This document shows, in pieces, positions 1-6,432 of a stretch of 6,432 nt of DNA (positions are counted from its first letter, which is position 1; each line of letters starts with the position of its first letter). Source of the DNA: a virus (lineage: Duplodnaviria > Heunggongvirae > Uroviricota > Caudoviricetes); the IMG/VR virus record IMGVR_UViG_2526164634_000019; one strand, given 5' to 3'. Below the pieces are notes generated by a model. That model saw only the letters and a program-made list of their open reading frames with translations. It did no database searches and was not told the origin of the DNA. A program made the translations under genes and the position numbers.

Positions 1-1
1 T

Positions 2-1461
2 GTCACCTGCCCGTCAAAATACCACGCCACAACAGAGAACGGTCATCCGAATCCCAAATGGAACGGGGCCACCATGCGCGACTCCAGCGATTACCTGGTT
101 AACACGTTTTTTGCGGCTGTCCGCAAAAAACTGAACCGCGACGGTCTGCGCTGGTATGGCATCCGCACGGTGGAGCCTCACCATGACGGCACCGTGCACT
201 GGCATATGATGGTCTTTGCTCATCCGGAAGAAATCGACACCATTGTGTCCCACACCCGCGATATTGCCATTCAGGAAGACCGCCACGAGCTGGGCGATGA
301 CATAACTCCGCGCTTTAAGGCGGAGTACGTCGACGGCTCAAAAGGCACACCAACCAGCTACATCGCCACCTACATCGGAAGAACCTGGACAGCCACGCCG
401 TGGATGGCATCGACCCGAAAACGGGCAAGCCACGCGTTGACCACGAAACCGGAAAATCAATGGCCGAGAGCGTGGAGCGCGCCATCGGCTGGGCGCGCCT
501 TCACCGGGTCCGCCAGTTCCAGTTCTTTGGCATCCCCTCCCGTCAGGTGTGGCGTGAACTGCGCCGCCTTGCCAGCCAGATGGCACGCAACCCGGAAGGC
601 CCGCAACGACTGAAGGACGACGCAATGGATGCGGTACTCGCTGCCGCTGATGCCGGGTGTTTTGCCTCCTACATTGAAAAACAGGGTGGCGTACTTGTTC
701 CACGCAAAGACTACCTGATTCGCACCGCCTACGACCTCGCAGATGAGCTGAACGATTACGGCGAACAGAGCGTACAGATTTACGGGATCTGGTCACCACT
801 CATCGGGGAGTCCTCCCGTGTGTGCACGCATCCGGATAACTGGAAGCTGGTAAGACGTAAACCGGAAGCGGAAGACAGCGCCCGCGAAAATGGTTTTGAC
901 CTTCAGGGCGGCCCTGCCGCCCCTTGGACTCGTGGCAATAACTGTCCCCGTGTACAGGAAACAGGCAACAACGGGACAGAACAGCCGGAAGAACGGCCAG
1001 CACCGTGGCCGCAGCTTCCTGACGGCGTTGAAGTAAATGAATGGATGCGCTCACTGAAACGGCACGAACGCCGGGCGCTGATGCGTTCGCTTCGTGACAA
1101 ACAGGCAAAAAACAGCAGCGATGAAATGCAGAACTGGACACAGAGCCGCAAACAGCAGCGGCCTTTGCCTGATAACCACGAGTTACTCGCTAAAGAATGG
1201 CGGGAGTCTGCTGAATCTCTCGGCCTGCATATCGGTGAACAACAGATGCAGCACCTGTTACGGGGCGGCAGCCTGTACGTTGACGGCAGCATCATTGCAC
1301 CGCAGGGATTTGAAATTGTACGCAAACCGGATACCCGCCCGGACAGCCGAATCACGCAGCTCTGGCAGCGTCTGAGCCGTAATCATGGCGTAAGCAGCAC
1401 GGAGATCCGCCATAACCCGGTCGCCAGCTATCTGGCACAGCTGGGGGCGATCAGACCCTGA
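2..1461 (+). pseudogene. HUH rolling-circle replication endonuclease (phage P2 gpA family); 5' end outside window; apparent 1-bp frameshift near 377-381
   Basis: Frame 2 is open from the window edge and gives ...TCPSKYHATTENGHP...GIRTVEPHHDGTVHWHMMVF (HUH motif HWH) ...GTPTSYIATYIG (paired catalytic Tyr, YxxxY). At GGAAG (377-381) this frame becomes low-complexity Ala/Ser/Arg-rich and stops at 613. Frame 1, closed by a TAA at 316-318, takes over at 379 with protein-like KNLDSHAVDGIDPKTGKPRVDHETGK... and runs to TGA at 1459-1461. Restoring one A (GGAAAG) would give a continuous YIATYIGKNLDS, analogous to phiX174 gpA YVAKYVNKK. ORF track pieces are 74..613 and 400..1461. Confidence 0.75.
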
Positions 1462-1507
1462 AGCCGCCGCACGCCTGGCATCCACACTTCAGCAGGACCA
1501 GAACACC

Positions 1508-1711
1508 ATGAAAACACCCGTTACCGTGCTTTCTGACATGCTGCGCGCCATCCGCGACGCAGAGCACGCACAGAGAATCAGTGAAACCACTGAACGCGCC
1601 AGCCGCAAAGCAGACCTGCTGCGGGGTGGCCTGACCAGTGGAAACAAAAAACAGACAGAAACGGGACTCACGAATCCCGTAAATGAGCAAAAAACGCGCA
1701 GTGATATATGA
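1508..1711 (+). CDS. hypothetical small protein (67 aa), basic/hydrophilic, downstream of gene A
   Basis: ATG at 1508 with a weak AGGA 12 nt upstream. Occupies the position of small ORFs that follow A in P2-like phages. Its 3' end overlaps the first palindromic site. No recognisable domain; could be non-coding. Confidence 0.3.
   Translation: MKTPVTVLSDMLRAIRDAEHAQRISETTERASRKADLLRGGLTSGNKKQTETGLTNPVNEQKTRSDI
1661..1680. promoter_or_regulatory. 20-bp palindromic operator-like site ACGGGACT-CACG-AATCCCGT (one mismatch)
   Basis: Inverted repeat read directly: 8-bp arms separated by 4 bp. Near-identical to the site at 1734-1753 and 73 bp (about 7 helical turns) away from it. Confidence 0.5.
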
Positions 1712-1733
1712 AGCGCGCACAAAACAGGCAAAA

Positions 1734-1753
1734 ACGGGATTTCAGAATCCCGT
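1734..1753. promoter_or_regulatory. 20-bp perfect palindromic operator-like site ACGGGATT-TCAG-AATCCCGT overlapping the putative stbA promoter
   Basis: Perfect 8-bp inverted arms with 4-bp spacer, 35 bp upstream of the stbA ATG. Flanked by a possible -35 TTCAGA and an AT-rich -10 (TAATTAAT). Candidate binding site for the StbB/ParR-like protein (autoregulation or centromere) or for another repressor. Confidence 0.5.
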
Positions 1754-1787
1754 AAACGATTAATTAATCAACATAAGGAAAATCGAC

Positions 1788-2747
1788 ATGAAAATTTGTA
1801 TCGACGACGGCTCCACCAACATCAAGCTGGCATGGACTGAGAACGGCGAACGCCGCAACGCCATCAGCCCGAACAGCTTCAAGTCGGAATGGTCTGCGCC
1901 GTTCGGTGGCACGCAGCCCGCGAACTACATGCTTGATGGCGTGCGCTATGGTTTTGATCCGGTCAGCGATCGCTTTGTCCAGACGACCGACACGCAATAC
2001 CAGTACAGCGATGTGAATGTCATTGCCATTCATCACGCGCTGGTCAAATCAGGCATCACACCACAGGAGGTGGATGTGGTTGTCACCCTGCCACTGAGCG
2101 AGTATTTCGACACAAACGCACAGCCGGACATGGCCAACATCAACCGCAAAAAAGCGAACGTTATGCGCCCGGTGGAATACCAGAACGGCGAAGCATTCAC
2201 TATCCGTAATGTACGGGTTATGCCTGAATCCATTCCGGCTGGCTTTAAAGCACTGGCTGACATGAGTCCGTTTGAATCCCTGCTGATTGTGGATTTAGGT
2301 GGAACCACGCTGGATGTGGCAAAGGTTCAGGGACAACTGGCAGGTATCAGCCAGGTGTTTTGCGATCCACACGTAGGCGTTTCCCTGATGGCCGATGCAG
2401 TACTGTCGGTGATGGCCACTAACGGTATGCGTACCAGTCACCACATCGCCAATACCATTATCGAACATCGCCATGATGAAGCCTGGCTGCGCCAGCACAT
2501 CCACAATGACGCGCATTACGCCAGCCTGATGGCGGTTATTCGTGAAAAGGAAGAAACACTGAAACAACGCGTGATCCGCGCGCTGGCGGGTTTTTCGGGT
2601 TACGGGCGGGTGATGCTTGTCGGTGGAGGGGCGGAGATTGTGGCACCCGCTATCCGCGAAGTCTGCGGAGTTAATGCGACTTTCATCGCGGACGGGGTGC
2701 CACAGTTTGCTCTGGTTAATGGGCTGTACGCAATGGACAAGGAGTAA
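1788..2747 (+). CDS. stbA: actin-like ATPase of type II plasmid partition systems (StbA/ParM family)
   Basis: 319-aa ORF with SD AAGGA 8 nt upstream of the ATG. N-terminus MKICIDDGSTNIKLAW and motifs VMPESIPAG, LIVDLGGTTLD, VMLVGGGAE, LVNG match the actin-fold phosphate/adenosine motifs and my recollection of R100 StbA (MLVFIDDGSTNIKLQW...). Not verified by database search. Confidence 0.85.
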   Translation: MKICIDDGSTNIKLAWTENGERRNAISPNSFKSEWSAPFGGTQPANYMLDGVRYGFDPVSDRFVQTTDTQYQYSDVNVIAIHHALVKSGITPQEVDVVVTLPLSEYFDTNAQPDMANINRKKANVMRPVEYQNGEAFTIRNVRVMPESIPAGFKALADMSPFESLLIVDLGGTTLDVAKVQGQLAGISQVFCDPHVGVSLMADAVLSVMATNGMRTSHHIANTIIEHRHDEAWLRQHIHNDAHYASLMAVIREKEETLKQRVIRALAGFSGYGRVMLVGGGAEIVAPAIREVCGVNATFIADGVPQFALVNGLYAMDKE

Positions 2748-2751
2748 ACCA

Positions 2752-3066
2752 ATGACGACACCAACCAGACGGATAAGTTTCTATCTGAAGCCCGCCGCCG
2801 TCAAGAGTGAACAGGAGGCGTGCAATTACCTCGATAGCCTGCCAGCCTCCGAACGCAGCCGCGCGCAACGCGCGGCCTTTCTGGCTGGGCTAGCGCTCAT
2901 AAAGCGCAACCCAGCATTTACCTACTGGATGGCCGAATGGCCAGAGGACAACCTCCCCTTCAATACCGTTAGCATCAAGGAAACATACCAGGATAATCAG
3001 CCTAGCGGAGTTGAATGCAATTTTTATAAAATAAAAAAGAATATTCAGACCTTATTCCCAGAATAA
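2752..3066 (+). CDS. stbB: StbB/ParR-like partition adaptor (likely ribbon-helix-helix DNA-binding protein), 104 aa
   Basis: ATG at 2752 preceded by SD AAGGAG (2739-2744), 4 bp after the stbA stop, so translationally coupled. The track ORF 2617..3066 uses an unlikely TTG start inside stbA. Sequence MTTPTRRISFYLKPAAV...SLPASERSRAQRAAFLAGLALIK resembles StbB/ParR N-terminal regions as I recall them. The last 25 or so codons lie in AT-rich DNA. Confidence 0.75.
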   Translation: MTTPTRRISFYLKPAAVKSEQEACNYLDSLPASERSRAQRAAFLAGLALIKRNPAFTYWMAEWPEDNLPFNTVSIKETYQDNQPSGVECNFYKIKKNIQTLFPE

Positions 3067-3114
3067 TCTGATAATTGTATGTGAACTAATAAAATACAGA
3101 CCAACACATCATTC

Positions 3115-3139
3115 TGGCACCCTTGCTAACAGGGTGCCA
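3115..3139. terminator. hairpin between convergent genes (9-bp stem TGGCACCCT/AGGGTGCCA, 7-nt loop), probable bidirectional terminator
   Basis: Perfect inverted repeat read directly, followed on the plus strand by TGTTTC. Located 49 bp after the stbB stop and 10 bp after the stop of the minus-strand gene ending at 3150. Confidence 0.5.
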
Positions 3140-3149
3140 ATGTTTCAAA

Positions 3150-3992
3150 TCATGATGAAATTGCCGAAGTTTTTTTATCGTGCTGAAGTACCGCAAATGC
3201 CATTAAAACCTCAAGAGAATAGCGGCGATAATACTTAACAAAACCATAATAAAATACTCGGGATGCAGCAATACAAAACAAGAGAAGAAAACAAAAAGGT
3301 AACAGTCTGATATTTATATCTATTAAAAAGGATAGAAGGAGCAGGAACATAAGCAACCAGACTGAAGCGAGAAAAACAAATGTAATGTTTCTACAAAAAC
3401 CATACAAAGCAACATAGTTTTGCATTTTCACCTGATGATTTTTAGAATGTTCATACACATAATGATAAGCAAGGCGAAAAAGATCGCCCCTCAAGCCCTT
3501 ACGTCGATATAGCGTAGATACAGAAAAAACATTTATATAACCATCTCGTATTTGCGGCCAAAAGACTTTAATAAGTATAGAATGCAGTGTGGTTTTATGA
3601 TGTTCTGCTTTATCAAAAGCTGATACAGGAAATAAAAAAACTCCACGAATAAAATTAACTATACTGAACTTAGTATTATGTCGTTTTATTTTCAGGGAGC
3701 TTCTTTTAGAAAACAGATAAATTGAAGGATACCCAAGTTTACTGTTCATGTATTTTTCAATTAAACAGGATGATAGAATAGATATGAAGTGACCTGAAAT
3801 ATATGATAGAACGATTAATACCACATATATAAATACACTTATTATTTCTTTATATTTCAGGATATGGTTAAGAATACCTTCTATATAAACAGGGTTAATT
3901 TCAATAGAAAACAAAAAAAGGATAAACAGGAATAACCCACCTGGAATTAGATAGCCCAAAAAGTCATAAAATGAAAACGGATTCTGTGTCAC
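3150..3992 (-). CDS. hypothetical polytopic membrane protein (280 aa; about 4 predicted TM helices flanking a roughly 125-aa basic central domain)
   Basis: Long minus-strand ORF in AT-rich DNA with a GTG start at 3992 preceded by SD-like AGGGGGAA. Strongly hydrophobic segments at roughly aa 9-29, 49-73, 205-227 and 233-255. Starts 39 bp downstream of the preceding gene stop, so it looks operonic. No recognisable catalytic motif by eye. Confidence 0.7.
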   Translation of the reverse strand: MTQNPFSFYDFLGYLIPGGLFLFILFLFSIEINPVYIEGILNHILKYKEIISVFIYVVLIVLSYISGHFISILSSCLIEKYMNSKLGYPSIYLFSKRSSLKIKRHNTKFSIVNFIRGVFLFPVSAFDKAEHHKTTLHSILIKVFWPQIRDGYINVFSVSTLYRRKGLRGDLFRLAYHYVYEHSKNHQVKMQNYVALYGFCRNITFVFLASVWLLMFLLLLSFLIDINIRLLPFCFLLLFCIAASRVFYYGFVKYYRRYSLEVLMAFAVLQHDKKTSAISS

Positions 3993-4031
3993 ACTTCCCC
4001 CTGTGTTACTTGTAAATTAAAGGGTAAAACA

Positions 4032-4529
4032 TTATTTGTTTTTCCGTAAAGGATTAGCTTTCCATCTTCTTACTAACCATTCGAATTCTTGATATGTAGT
4101 ATCCGAATTAATGCTTTCTCTGATTGCTTTAATTAATGGCTCGGCAATATCATATGTCTCTACAACTGTTGTGTAAGATGTTCTTTTTATCATTTTTTCA
4201 TCATAAATACCTTCACGAATACTTACAGCAACTCGCTCGTAAAAATTTAAAATATATTGAAATTTTCGACGCTCGGCCATTTCTTCATCTGTTATTATGC
4301 AACCATCACAAGGAAAAACATAAGAACGAAATGATTTGCCTGAACGATGCACTTGTTTCAGGGTATGCAATGACTCTATATATTGCATATCTTGCCGACT
4401 CTCAAAAAGAAAGTTGGCCGTTTGAGTTTTTTTTGCGGTACGCACATTGTAGATAATGGTTCCAATGGCAACCAAAACGCCAAGCAGAACAATAGCATTG
4501 CTGATGATTTGTAGTGTTATTGGGTTCAT
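4032..4529 (-). CDS. hypothetical single-pass membrane protein (165 aa; N-terminal TM helix plus about 135-aa soluble domain)
   Basis: ATG at 4529. N-terminal ITLQIISNAIVLLGVLVAIGTIIY is a clear TM/signal-anchor segment, followed by a charged soluble domain. AT-rich and co-oriented with the downstream polytopic membrane protein gene. Confidence 0.7.
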   Translation of the reverse strand: MNPITLQIISNAIVLLGVLVAIGTIIYNVRTAKKTQTANFLFESRQDMQYIESLHTLKQVHRSGKSFRSYVFPCDGCIITDEEMAERRKFQYILNFYERVAVSIREGIYDEKMIKRTSYTTVVETYDIAEPLIKAIRESINSDTTYQEFEWLVRRWKANPLRKNK

Positions 4530-4549
4530 CCTATTTCATCCATAAAAAA

Positions 4550-4570
4550 GGCGGGGAGCAAATCCCCGCC
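4550..4570 (-). terminator. intrinsic-terminator-like hairpin (8-bp GC-rich stem GGCGGGGA/TCCCCGCC, 5-nt loop) followed on the minus strand by T6
   Basis: Read directly. On the minus strand the hairpin is followed by TTTTTT (plus 4544-4549) and lies only about 14 nt upstream of the ATG at 4529, which leaves no room for a promoter between terminator and gene. Confidence 0.55.
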
Positions 4571-4590
4571 TCATTAGAGGTCAACGTAGC

Positions 4591-4626
4591 TTAGAAACCA
4601 TCAAATTCATCATACATTTTTTTCAT
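4591..4626 (-). other. candidate 11-codon leader ORF (MKKMYDEFDGF) with strong SD, upstream of the terminator hairpin
   Basis: Minus-strand ATG at 4626-4624 preceded by GAGGGGG with a 5-nt spacer; stop TAA at 4593-4591, 20 nt before the hairpin. The arrangement promoter, leader ORF, terminator, structural genes resembles an attenuator. Could be coincidental. Confidence 0.25.
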
Positions 4627-4678
4627 ATCAACCCCCTCATAGAAATCATAACCACGTTTTGTGGTTTTTGTGACGTAT

Positions 4679-4707
4679 AAACTACATCAAAGGCAAGCCA
4701 CGGTCAA
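4679..4707 (-). promoter_or_regulatory. candidate sigma70 promoter for the leader and membrane-protein operon (-35 TTGACC, 17-bp spacer, -10 TAGTTT)
   Basis: Minus-strand TTGACC (plus 4707-4702) and TAGTTT (plus 4684-4679) with a 17-bp spacer; the -10 keeps the conserved T1, A2, T6. Predicted from sequence only. Confidence 0.35.
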
Positions 4708-4726
4708 ATATATAGGCATGCTTACC

Positions 4727-4756
4727 TGCACAAAAGTGCACAAATTTGCACAATTT
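4727..4756. repeat. three tandem 10-bp direct repeats TGCACAA(A)nn at the right edge of the AT-rich island
   Basis: TGCACAAAAG / TGCACAAATT / TGCACAATTT in helical phase, read directly. The middle copy contains the palindrome GTGCAC. Confidence 0.5.
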
Positions 4757-5127
4757 TTTTGAACGACTTTTTACCCTTCCGGCCCGCATGGCGGCTGGAT
4801 CCGTCAAGGATCCGTGCGTGCACAAAAAAACGCGCTTTTTCTGCGCGCAGGTGACGGGGGAACAGCCCGCGTTTCAGGGGGTAAATAGCATTCCCTGAAC
4901 GATGTCGCAGAGATAGAACAGAATGGCTGTATTTCTCACGCTGAGCGTGAAAAAGACGTGAGGGCTTTTGATTTGATGGGGTGAAAGGTAAGGCCGTCAA
5001 AATCGCACTGAGACGGCGAGAACATGCAGTCAACGCGGTGGGATTGCGTAAGAGTCTGACTGTCGATGATGGCAATCAGCAGGAAAGCGTCGTGAAATTA
5101 TCTGACTGATACAGGAGCTGGAGAGTC

Positions 5128-5150
5128 GGGGCATAAATTTTTTATGCCCC
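5128..5150. terminator. inverted repeat GGGGCATAAA-TTT-TTTATGCCCC, 28 bp downstream of the portal gene stop
   Basis: 10-bp stem with 3-nt loop read directly. No flanking U-tract on either strand, so it may be a terminator for the leftward late operon or a protein-binding or packaging site. Confidence 0.4.
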
Positions 5151-5177
5151 GGCGAAGCAGCAGACAAGCGAAGCGCG

Positions 5178-5747
5178 TCAGGATGTGGGCTGGGTGTCTA
5201 ACAGTGCGTAAGGGTTAAAGCGGATCACCTCTTCGCCAAGCCAGTCATTGATGTGCTTCATGGCCTCCATGACGGGCATCAGCTCGTTAATTGCGTAAAC
5301 CCGCGCGGCCTTCTCCACATCACCAAACGCACTTTTTTCGCCCGGCATCGCCCCCATCAGTTGCGGCGGAACGCGGTGCGCAGCCAGCACATCATCACGG
5401 GATGCCGCCTTAACATTCATGAACTCATCCTTTGCGGTGATCTGCTGGAACGGCAAAATTTGCACCCCTTCTTTGCCCCCGTTGGGCGCATGAATGAGCA
5501 CGTTTTTAAATGCACCACCACCACGCGCACCCTGTAACGTTTCTTTCAGGGAGTCCATGCTTTCGCGGTTTACCTGCGCTGCACCGATGTAGATGATGCA
5601 CCCGGCGTGGGATCCGTTGTCGTAGTACAGTTTTCTGAACATGTCCGCCGAATGAGAAAGGCTGGCCGAGAGTAATGCGCCAAGATATTCCGGCATGCCG
5701 TAGATTTCCTGGTTAATATCCGGATTCATCAGGTGGCACACTTTGCC
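5178..5747 (-). CDS. phage portal protein (P2 gpQ-like), C-terminal part only; 5' portion separated by IS10 insertion
   Basis: Minus-strand ORF ending at the stop at 5180-5178. Translation ...HRVPPQLMGAMPGEKSAFGDVEKAARVYAINEL...WLGEEVIRFNPYALLDT resembles the C-terminus of P2-family portal proteins (from memory). The frame runs straight into the IS10 terminal repeat at 5748 and hits a stop inside IS10 at 5760-5762, so the gene is interrupted. Confidence 0.7.
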   Translation of the reverse strand, partial: GKVCHLMNPDINQEIYGMPEYLGALLSASLSHSADMFRKLYYDNGSHAGCIIYIGAAQVNRESMDSLKETLQGARGGGAFKNVLIHAPNGGKEGVQILPFQQITAKDEFMNVKAASRDDVLAAHRVPPQLMGAMPGEKSAFGDVEKAARVYAINELMPVMEAMKHINDWLGEEVIRFNPYALLDTQPTS

Positions 5748-5770
5748 CTGATGAATCCCCTAATGATTTT
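5748..5770. repeat. IS10 outside-end terminal inverted repeat
   Basis: Exact match to the 23-bp IS10 outside end as remembered. Confidence 0.85.
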
Positions 5771-5793
5771 TATCAAAATCATTAAGTTAAGGT

Positions 5794-5862
5794 AGATACA
5801 CATCTTGTCATATGATCAAATGGTTTCGCCAAAAATCAATAATCAGACAACAAAATGTGCGA
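5794..5862 (-). ncRNA. IS10 RNA-OUT antisense RNA (predicted position)
   Basis: Placed from established IS10 biology: pOUT starts near element position 115 and RNA-OUT runs about 69 nt outward, overlapping the transposase start (RNA-IN). The Dam site GATC at 5814-5817 lies in the pIN region. Not verified independently. Confidence 0.4.
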
Positions 5863-6432
5863 ACTCGATATTTTACACGACTCTCTTTACCAATTCTGCC
5901 CCGAATTACACTTAAAACGACTCAACAGCTTAACGTTGGCTTGCCACGCCTTACTTGACTGTAAAACTCTCACTCTTACCGAACTTGGCCGTAACCTGCC
6001 AACCAAAGCGAGAACAAAACATAACATCAAACGAATCGACCGATTGTTAGGTAATCGTCACCTCCACAAAGAGCGACTCGCTGTATACCGTTGGCATGCT
6101 AGCTTTATCTGTTCGGGCAATACGATGCCCATTGTACTTGTTGACTGGTCTGATATCCGTGAGCAAAAACGGCTTATGGTATTGCGAGCTTCAGTCGCAC
6201 TACACGGTCGTTCTGTTACTCTTTATGAGAAAGCGTTCCCGCTTTCAGAGCAATGTTCAAAGAAAGCTCATGACCAATTTCTAGCCGACCTTGCGAGCAT
6301 TCTACCGAGTAACACCACACCGCTCATTGTCAGTGATGCTGGCTTTAAAGTGCCATGGTATAAATCCGTTGAGAAGCTGGGTTGGTACTGGTTAAGTCGA
6401 GTAAGAGGAAAAGTACAATATGCAGACCTAGG
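5855..6432 (+). CDS. IS10 transposase, N-terminal 192 codons; 3' end beyond window
   Basis: ATG at 5855; frame open to the window end. Translation MCELDILHDSLYQFCPELHLKRLNSLTLACHALLDCKTLTLTELGRNLPTKARTKHNIKRIDRLLGNRHLHKERLAVYRWHASF... matches IS10 transposase. Absent from the ORF track because no stop falls in the window. Confidence 0.9.
   Translation, partial: MCELDILHDSLYQFCPELHLKRLNSLTLACHALLDCKTLTLTELGRNLPTKARTKHNIKRIDRLLGNRHLHKERLAVYRWHASFICSGNTMPIVLVDWSDIREQKRLMVLRASVALHGRSVTLYEKAFPLSEQCSKKAHDQFLADLASILPSNTTPLIVSDAGFKVPWYKSVEKLGWYWLSRVRGKVQYADL

Follow-up and report, generated by a model that had tools for sequence, protein, structure and literature searches.

An AT-rich, probably exchangeable accessory island that takes in the 3' part of stbB at the cos-proximal hotspot of a P88-like Escherichia coli prophage

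The subject of this analysis is an AT-rich island within a 6,432-nucleotide (nt) stretch of viral DNA, IMG/VR record IMGVR_UViG_2526164634_000019, the whole of which is referred to as the window. The island lies between the partition gene stbB (parR) and the portal gene of a P88-like Escherichia coli prophage, and its cargo consists of two genes, an open reading frame (ORF) for a membrane protein of 280 residues, called ORF280, and a gene of the DUF4760 family. The island is probably an exchangeable accessory segment of this prophage, housed in a known hotspot, with the AT-rich tail of stbB representing an allelic StbB C-terminus that moved together with the cargo. A previous sequence-only reading had taken this tail for a chimeric StbB C-terminus, generated when AT-rich DNA was inserted or exchanged at a breakpoint inside the gene. 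As first stated, the finding is routine cargo exchange at a described hotspot and changes little, and the island is indeed the catalogued cargo of a known prophage hotspot, an ordinary hotspot mosaic with useful mechanistic detail. That detail is a set of base-level boundaries for the P88-type hotspot, with an invariant right end at a series of GCACAA repeats and a left limit that may fall within stbB. Such boundaries bear on the open question, in a 2026 Nucleic Acids Research study, of which kind of recombination swaps defence loci so fast (PMC13586616).

Positions 1–5747 of the window are 98.4–98.6% identical by megablast to phages of the P88 group, and matches at the same level are found in the prophages of 279 complete E. 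coli genomes. The relatives belong to the genus Xuanwuvirus within the Peduoviridae, the P2 family, and near-identical prophages are annotated with the gene order replication endonuclease (A), ParM, plasmid partitioning/stability protein, hypothetical protein, DUF4760 protein and portal. The island therefore has gene A and stbA/stbB on one side and the cos/portal region on the other. This is the position of the cos-proximal gpA-gpQ hotspot of P2-like phages described by Rousset et al. in 2022, who counted 1,650 gene arrangements and noted that roughly one in four P2-like phages has a putative partition system (PMC9122126). The present arrangement had already been catalogued, with WP_001068329, WP_000193205 and WP_000211283 all appearing in Table S5 of that paper, and the cassette has no match in its Table S2 of tested and cloned systems (PMC9122126). 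The window shares with the hotspot a site between A and Q next to cos, conserved flanks, variable and often AT-rich cargo, and the stbA/stbB genes. In contrast to the published descriptions (PMC9122126, PMC13586616), which set the limits by whole genes and count StbA/StbB as variable, the boundaries given here are at the level of single bases. The comparison covered 95 related loci (annotated phages, E. coli genomes and IMG/VR) in which the cargo falls into 26 sequence clusters and the flanks are 95–99% identical. Across P88-like phages with differing cargo gene A is 93–98% identical, and parM is 96–99% identical.

The composition of the island is distinct. In 200-nt sliding windows the GC content is 0.54–0.59 up to about 2900, 0.25–0.40 over 2901–4800 and 0.49–0.58 beyond. 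A two-change-point likelihood fit to 1788–5747 places the breaks at 3011 (2-log-likelihood interval 2948–3023) and 4774 (4760–4781), with segment GC contents of 0.549, 0.335 and 0.541 and a log-likelihood gain of 89. Within stbB (2752–3066) the GC content of third codon positions (GC3) is 0.67 for codons 1–79 and 0.32 for codons 80–104, against a background of 0.26–0.27 in the two cargo genes and 0.63–0.66 in parM, gpA and the portal gene, and the stretch 3021–3050, coding for FYKIKKNIQT, has a GC content of 13%. An abrupt fall near 2990 inside stbB is thus borne out by the profile, the change-point interval and the GC3 split, the recovery near 4760 agrees with the fitted change point at 4774, and the discontinuity is present when computed. 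The tandem repeat array noticed at the right edge is real but small, with 2.7 copies of a 10-nt unit at 4727–4753. The genes for ORF280 and DUF4760 lie 4–18 GC points under their flanks at every occurrence examined, the sole exception being a DUF4760 relative in one Providencia siphophage, which is about 1 point under. Since both are low in GC wherever they are found, the low GC content is a property of the genes and not the fingerprint of one donor.

The right end of the island is fixed. When 2900–4800 was compared by megablast with 5,426 E. coli genomes, phages with other cargo rejoined at query position 1827/1828, which is 4726|4727 of the window, and homology resumes at 4727 in essentially all of the 26 cargo clusters. 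Direct alignment shows wholly different sequence to the left of this junction and GCACAA[A/T]AGTGCACAAATTTGCACAATTTTTTTGAAC to the right. The feature that begins here is:

4727–4770 (plus strand): backbone element, three copies of GCACAA at 10-nt spacing followed by a T-run (TRF array 4727–4753; homology resumes at 4727).

The repeat array hence belongs to the backbone and marks the fixed limit of the hotspot on this side. As this element is itself AT-rich, the compositional change point falls about 45 nt to the right of the true junction. The element, which also contains a small palindrome (GTGCACAAATTTGCAC) before the T-run, could be a terminator of rightward transcription, an operator or a recombination anchor. 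The idea that the three GCACAA copies form an Ogr-type late-promoter site (TGT-N12-ACA) was dropped, as the match is partial and the spacing to the candidate promoter is wrong.

The left end is more complex and divides stbB into four parts:

2752–2885 (plus strand): stbB codons 1–45, backbone-like, N-terminal half of the ParR ribbon-helix-helix domain (PF10784; allele identity).
2886–2949 (plus strand): stbB codons 46–66, AFLAGLAL block with conserved protein and anciently diverged DNA, the likely crossover zone (allele alignments).
2950–3030 (plus strand): stbB codons 67–93, hypervariable linker in which the GC drop at about 2990–3011 falls (ungapped identity; change point 3011).
3031–3066 (plus strand): stbB codons 94–104 and stop, conserved KKNIQTLFPE in AT-rich DNA, putative ParM-binding helix (motif [KR]xNI[QR]xxFPE).

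Compared with P88-type alleles, identity is 95–100% up to 2806 and 55–65% thereafter. The nearest alleles, termed type 2 (strains 2013C-3492, STEC313 and TUM9812 together with IMG/VR loci), show 1–7 mismatches up to about 2885, but from 2886 nearly every third codon position differs, with the protein conserved and DNA identity at 73–83% over 2872–2949. Over 2950–3030 the ungapped identity to every other allele type is 26–35%, the random level, and the last 36 nt of stbB return to 75–83% DNA identity with type-2 alleles. Upstream, parM and gene A are 93–99% identical in all of the P88-type and type-2 comparisons. The left boundary is therefore nested, with steps at 2806, about 2886 and 2950. 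The lineage-specific segment starts at about 2886, in the DNA for the invariant AFLAGLAL block, homology is lost entirely at codon 67, and the GC drop lies within a linker that is already unalignable. Judged from the aligned alleles, the comparative breakpoints lie 40–185 nt upstream of the GC drop. The same AFLAGLAL block is where two mosaic alleles switch type, P0056 combining a type-1 N-terminal half with a type-2 tail and P0046 being the reverse.

Comparison with related prophages, which had been put forward as the way to define the breakpoints, thus gives an exact junction on the right and the three nested limits on the left. The suggestion of a recombination breakpoint inside stbB stands in so far as variable, cargo-linked DNA begins within the gene, but the breaks are at 2806/2807 and about 2886 and not at 2990. 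For this cassette the related claim, that the exchange was not a clean one into intergenic DNA, also holds, as the cargo-linked DNA begins inside stbB.

The StbB protein is 104 residues long and matches the Plasmid_stab_B family (PF10784, E 2.8e-28, residues 6–75). Residues 6–57 align to the ribbon-helix-helix domain of pB171 ParR (PDB 2JD3, 'StbB protein', E 0.012), and the gene starts at 2752, immediately downstream of parM (1788–2747). Full-length homologues have a conserved N-terminal domain, a linker of about 25–45 residues and a terminal motif, [KR]xNI[QR]xxFPE, with which nearly all of approximately 60 such proteins end. The linker exists in more than 25 unrelated versions in the StbB family of this phage group. 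The window StbB matches other alleles in length and terminates in KKNIQTLFPE (motif NIxxLFPE). As the standard length and the terminal motif are kept, the C-terminus did not arise by chance fusion to inserted DNA, and the chimera envisaged by the sequence-only reading gives way to an allelic tail. On the strength of these alignments the AT-rich tail is a homologous, full-length StbB tail, made of a disordered linker and a conserved motif, and if it was imported then the donor is another stbB gene. Alignment of homologues, offered earlier as a check on whether the tail is conserved, gives a divided answer, since the terminal motif is conserved family-wide and the AT-rich linker is unlike that of any other allele type. 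No unrelated element with the same AT-rich tail was found in IMG/VR or among 5.8 billion proteins.

The C-terminal end of R1 ParR binds ParM, and by analogy the terminal StbB motif is probably the ParM contact; the C-terminal end of the present StbB, which is basic and hydrophobic, looks similar to that of R1 ParR. The plasmid ParR/StbB proteins of type II ParMRC systems (R1/NR1, pB171, 2JD3) share with the present protein the Plasmid_stab_B domain, the ribbon-helix-helix alignment, the location downstream of parM and the presence of upstream repeats. Unlike plasmid ParR, the present StbB is prophage-borne, is shorter at 104 residues and has a hypervariable linker of about 28 residues, of which a single phage group holds more than 25 versions, and its putative parC has two 42-nt repeats in place of the 10-iteron layout of R1. 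We know of no description of intragenic allelic mosaicism of this sort for plasmid ParR. It implies a partition adaptor protein that tolerates wholesale replacement of its linker provided that the terminal motif is kept.

The case for joint movement of tail and cargo comes from their linkage. ORF280 and the segment 2900–4800 are each present in 289 genomes at no less than 80% coverage, and the AT-rich tail is completely linked to this cargo (289/289 genomes), including in a variant from O111 strains that has diverged by 6–11%. Each occurrence of the tail precedes this cargo or a remnant of it truncated by an insertion sequence (IS). In O157:H7 strains IS629/IS1203 is found at 3098 or 3106 after the AT-rich tail, and two more loci (L017 and L021) are further truncated examples. 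Across allele types the GC content of the tail is correlated with that of the 300 nt that follow (rho 0.46, p 0.005, for points that are not independent of each other). Most of the divergence of the O111:H8 variant falls in ORF280 and gives no closer position for the junction. Of the two cargo genes, the AT-rich tail goes with the side of ORF280 and not with that of DUF4760.

The O157:H7 form of the locus is of a particular kind. In strains EDL933 and 9234 (L009, L010) the AT-rich StbB allele is followed, 30–40 nt past its stop codon, by IS629/IS1203 and then by tail genes. This form, which occurs in about 260 genomes, is a prophage remnant from which the cargo, cos and the head genes have been deleted.

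The near-identical flanks and unrelated cargo among relatives indicate that the cargo is most likely swapped by homologous recombination. Crossovers between co-resident relatives would take place in the conserved flanks, and for this cassette the left crossover would lie inside stbB, in the conserved block coding for AFLAGLAL, such that the AT-rich tail would be gained by allelic exchange and would travel with the AT-rich cargo. Recombination between related phages would account for the invariant right end, for the graded divergence on the left and for the mosaic alleles. The mechanism is likewise left open in the 2026 work on P2/P4 hotspots (PMC13586616).

A number of points weigh against this account. 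The mechanism is deduced from patterns of similarity alone, and elsewhere in the group tail and cargo are separable, the P88-type tail being found with at least eight cargo compositions and a tail with the sequence EEGAAPAKNN with three. In the Citrobacter phage Shae_phiSM the DUF4760 gene (78% amino acid identity) is the sole cargo and accompanies a GC-rich tail of the P88 type. Given this uncoupling, co-transfer in the present case rests on linkage in one lineage and on composition, with no independent events. The compositional contrast is itself modest when the entire variable part of stbB is compared with the rest (GC3 of 0.45 versus 0.67, Fisher p 0.04), and the tail is rich in K, N, I, F and Y, residues that require AT-rich codons. 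No donor combining the AT-rich tail with a different N-terminal half was found in IMG/VR or the 5.8 billion proteins. Finally, the cargo lacks a match to a known defence family and is absent from the systems of Rousset et al. that were tested (PMC9122126). The donor search, over the same collections, recovered the AT-rich tail in no StbB outside Escherichia/Shigella, and the nearest ORF280 relatives, at 42–49% identity, do not identify a donor either.

Since P88-type and other tails pair with several cargos, the cargo usually swaps downstream of the stop codon in this group. A breakpoint inside stbB is consequently not a general rule, and the present cassette is a case in which the linked block takes in the 3' part of the gene. 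The main alternative extends the usual situation to this cassette as well and places the junction at the stbB stop codon, with a clean swap of intergenic and cargo DNA. The tail would then be one variant of a hypervariable, weakly constrained linker, its composition set by amino acid content or local mutation bias. The linker is in fact wholly different among all allele types whatever the cargo, several tails occur with multiple cargos, and the conserved terminal motif means that the end of the gene behaves as gene and not as cargo. Other tails also lie below the backbone in GC content (0.36–0.47), and the p value of the GC3 test is only 0.04. What this alternative does not accommodate is the completeness of the tail-cargo linkage in 289 genomes, the diverged O111 variant among them. 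Moreover, the GC3 of the last 25 codons (0.32) is like that of the cargo and unlike that of the rest of stbB, and the anciently diverged synonymous sites from 2886 show that the entire 3' part of the gene is of a separate lineage. The DNA beyond the stop codon is also informative, as P88-type alleles remain homologous to each other for up to about 70 nt past it before cargo-specific DNA begins, whereas the 83 nt after the stop in the window have no homology to any other cargo type. A junction at the stop codon is accordingly a serious but doubtful alternative, and co-transfer of the stbB 3' part with the cargo remains the preferred account.

The cargo itself comprises the following features:

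3116–3138 (no strand): 8-bp perfect hairpin between the convergent stbB and ORF280, read from the sequence as GGCACCCT-TGCTAAC-AGGGTGCC.
3150–3992 (minus strand): ORF280, multi-pass membrane protein of 280 residues, cargo gene 2 (ORF).
4032–4529 (minus strand): DUF4760 protein of 165 residues with an N-terminal transmembrane helix and an all-helical domain, cargo gene 1 (PF15956, E 1.8e-34).

Both genes are transcribed away from cos. The hairpin between stbB and ORF280 is without a T-run and was not called by the terminator scan. ORF280 has no Pfam family but matches phrog_12528, and its two hydrophobic regions (approximately residues 8–78 and 198–252) would each accommodate about two membrane spans. 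Its relatives, at the 42–49% identity given above, stand alone next to xis/int in lambdoid prophages of E. coli, Salmonella and Enterobacter. Homologues of the DUF4760 protein are found at 60–88% identity across the Enterobacterales. The gene is found in the same slot of P2-like prophages, just past the portal gene, in Xenorhabdus, Providencia, Klebsiella, Pectobacterium and Citrobacter, where its neighbours vary and stbAB is absent. The Rahnella copy is chromosomal, and a relative with 47% identity is a moron in a Providencia siphophage.

Over 3200–3900 the window and the O111:H8 strain 9662 (L014) differ in ORF280 by 8–21 mismatches per 100 nt (87% amino acid identity), with DUF4760 differing by 0–3 per 100 nt. 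ORF280 is either fast-evolving or has been separately replaced between island variants.

As ORF280 and DUF4760 each occur alone as a prophage moron, they most likely provide two independent functions expressed in the lysogen. It is unlikely that they form one two-component system, a sensor with a membrane effector, and that the island is a single defence operon. In favour of such a system, the two genes run in the same direction with 39 nt between them, have a single promoter region and a leader gated by a terminator upstream, and are always together in E. coli (289 genomes). However, the ORF280 homologues of lambdoid prophages have no DUF4760 partner, DUF4760 lacks ORF280 as a partner in Citrobacter, Klebsiella, Pectobacterium, Xenorhabdus, Providencia and Rahnella, and the protein divergence between the E. 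coli variants is 13% for ORF280 against less than 1% for DUF4760.

From the hotspot context the role of the cargo is plausibly phage exclusion at the membrane. Known morons and superinfection-exclusion proteins (P22 SieA/SieB, T4 Imm/Sp and P2 Tin/Old) are likewise small membrane proteins in prophage accessory slots, AT-rich relative to their surroundings, equipped with their own promoter (here a candidate) and terminator, and found singly in unrelated prophages. The present proteins differ in that neither their sequences nor their profiles resemble any of these proteins or any PADLOC model. The PADLOC-DB search returned weak matches only, Csx27 at 1e-5 for ORF280 and PDC-S35 at 0.014 for DUF4760, with no convincing defence family. 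A literature search turned up no function for DUF4760, a name used in a single unrelated paper.

It is highly improbable that the island is a mobile element in its own right, such as a transposon, an integron-like cassette or an integrative element, that landed in the 3' end of stbB. The composition does change sharply, and IS elements are close by (IS10 in the portal gene, IS629/IS1203 beside the same tail in O157 strains), but these IS insertions came later and are specific to strains. The island ends on the right where every other cargo type ends, and an insertion would have truncated StbB, which keeps its normal length and terminal motif. A transposon or integrative-element origin was rejected on two results, namely that a repeat scan of the window found no direct or inverted repeats bracketing 2950–3011 and 4727–4774, and that the island has no recombinase, transposase or integrase ORF, its only two supported ORFs both encoding membrane proteins.

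Upstream of the DUF4760 gene there is a compact leader with these features:

4677–4705 (minus strand): candidate cargo promoter, TTGACC-17 nt-TAGTTT (from sequence), in island-specific DNA just inside the right junction.
4591–4626 (minus strand): micro-ORF of 11 codons, MKKMYDEFDGF-stop, a candidate leader peptide (translation), with a strong Shine-Dalgarno sequence, GAGGGGG.
4548–4572 (minus strand): intrinsic terminator with a 10-bp stem containing seven G-C pairs and then TTTTTT, 18 nt before the DUF4760 start.
Micro-ORF with terminator at loci besides the window: L003, L103, L104, L106, L107, L113, L114, L119, L129, L136, L142, L158, L170, L177, L188, L202, L207 and L208.

A consensus promoter scan placed the candidate site at 4674–4645 instead. 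At no fewer than 15 loci in many genera of Enterobacterales, DUF4760 is preceded by the same layout of micro-ORF and terminator. The N-terminal residues of the peptide vary, and [FYLH]DEFDGF-stop is invariant, with synonymous codon changes. The terminator is kept in 10 aligned leaders, with one compensatory pair, and the leader also holds an invariant ACCTCT between the micro-ORF and the terminator. In the minimum-free-energy fold of the leader (z -2.0) the Shine-Dalgarno sequence of the micro-ORF pairs with this ACCUCU and the terminator is kept. Covariation in support of the fold is almost nil, 3 of 16 pairs having changed on both sides, and neither folding nor the aligned leaders gave a convincing antiterminator alternative.

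The simplest reading of 4548–4626 would be a leader-peptide attenuator. It resembles the tnaC, speFL, erm and cat leaders in having a short ORF with a strong Shine-Dalgarno sequence, a terminator within about 20 nt and then the regulated gene, and the invariance of the peptide C-terminus up to the stop codon is a further likeness. It differs from known attenuators in that there is no clear antiterminator, just the conserved ACCUCU that is able to pair with the leader Shine-Dalgarno sequence. A five-codon ORF, ATG GAT GAA ATA GGA TGA (MDEIG-stop, 4530–4545, minus strand), starts at the end of the terminator U-tract, and its stop codon overlaps the DUF4760 start (ATGA), a layout that recurs in several homologues and suggests translational coupling to DUF4760.

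Micro-ORFs ending in DEFDGF-stop also occur in other settings. They are found before other cargo in P88-like loci and also at the 3' end of other cargo operons. In P2-like hotspots of Enterobacter and Citrobacter one follows a Doc-like gene, and in Xenorhabdus and Photorhabdus prophages they lie between the Q antiterminator gene and the lysis genes. A position at the 3' end of an operon is a poor fit to a simple leader role, and given these other contexts the DEFDGF peptide may have a role of its own. In a genome-wide scan for the motif about 69 of 91 matches are expected by chance, judging by the information content of the pattern, and only the subset in short ORFs of Enterobacterales was used. 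The literature search found no mention of a DEFDGF peptide. If confirmed, a DEFDGF micro-ORF family at phage accessory slots would represent a new small regulatory or bioactive peptide. The loci are:

DEFDGF-stop micro-ORFs elsewhere: L089–L092 at about 4690–4730 (plus strand); L145 at 362–382; L167 at 2228–2248; and L140, L169, L131, L160, L174 and L181.

Examples among these peptides are MKKKRMNDEFDGF-stop, MTMKKTIFN...DEFDGF-stop and MKDEFEWCDEFDGF-stop. One such micro-ORF overlaps the end of a ClpX-zinc-finger-like gene at an A-run in P88-like cargo.

The predicted fold of the DUF4760 protein offers a further lead. The AlphaFold2 model has a pLDDT of 94 and a pTM of 0.81, and its best structural matches are the EP domains of the plant proteins EDS1, PAD4 and SAG101, which places the model with the EP-domain fold, in an alignment that may also take in the membrane helix. 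A profile built from 47 DUF4760 homologues retrieved no EDS1, PAD4 or SAG101 from the PDB, and the EDS1_EP Pfam model matched none of the 47 members at E values up to 10. A sequence link between DUF4760 and EDS1 was therefore rejected, there being no sequence or profile signal. EDS1, PAD4 and SAG101 have a lipase-like N-terminal domain fused to the EP domain and work with nucleotide signals made by TIR proteins. In DUF4760 there is a transmembrane helix and no lipase-like domain, and eight DUF4760 neighbourhoods contained no TIR gene or other signal-generating neighbour. The likeness is best treated as a modelled resemblance of fold, a lead and not evidence of homology. To our knowledge, the EP domain is regarded as plant-specific. 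That DUF4760 is a membrane-anchored bacterial or phage counterpart of the EP domain, acting as a small-molecule-sensing exclusion protein gated by a novel leader peptide (xxxxDEFDGF-stop) and terminator, is a speculative proposal and a very unlikely one. If confirmed, the EP-like fold would connect an orphan gene that is widespread in prophages with an immune fold of plants, and this lead and the DEFDGF family could then matter more than the cargo exchange itself.

The remaining features of the window belong to the backbone or to a later insertion:

1–1461 (plus strand): replication endonuclease gene A, 3' part, P2-type (ORFs; annotation of relatives; backbone).
1645–1759 (plus strand): two 42-nt direct repeats, family D1, at 1645–1686 and 1718–1759 (81% identity, 73-nt spacing), candidate parC/promoter region.
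1788–2747 (plus strand): stbA/parM, actin-like partition ATPase (PF06406, E 1.8e-82; PF21523, E 3.7e-68; backbone).
4771–5177 (no strand): non-coding backbone from the hotspot to the portal gene, the expected cos region, 95–98% identical in P88-like phages.
5178–5747 (minus strand): portal gene Q, 3' part, interrupted by IS10 (ORF; portal annotation in relatives).
5748–6432: IS10 (match to an IS10 record; RNA-OUT at 5793–5862, 97 bits).

By their position before parM, as in ParMRC loci, the 42-nt repeats are a candidate parC centromere, and an 18-mer at 959–976 is related to them. The P2 cohesive-end sequence is absent from the window with up to three mismatches allowed, and cos was thus not located. 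In an Rfam scan the RNA-OUT of IS10 was the sole match over threshold, with nothing in the island. Homology to relatives stops at 5747 in every match listed, and the IS10 insertion at 5747/5748 is present in none of the listed island-bearing E. coli genomes or phage records. This copy of the prophage is probably defective for packaging through the IS10 in its portal gene. The cargo is also found at 99.8–100% identity on two large E. coli plasmid records, NZ_MK439959.1 (46329–47988) and CP054248.1 (521198–522853), and a P88-like element may be carried by a plasmid or be one itself, which would suit its partition genes.

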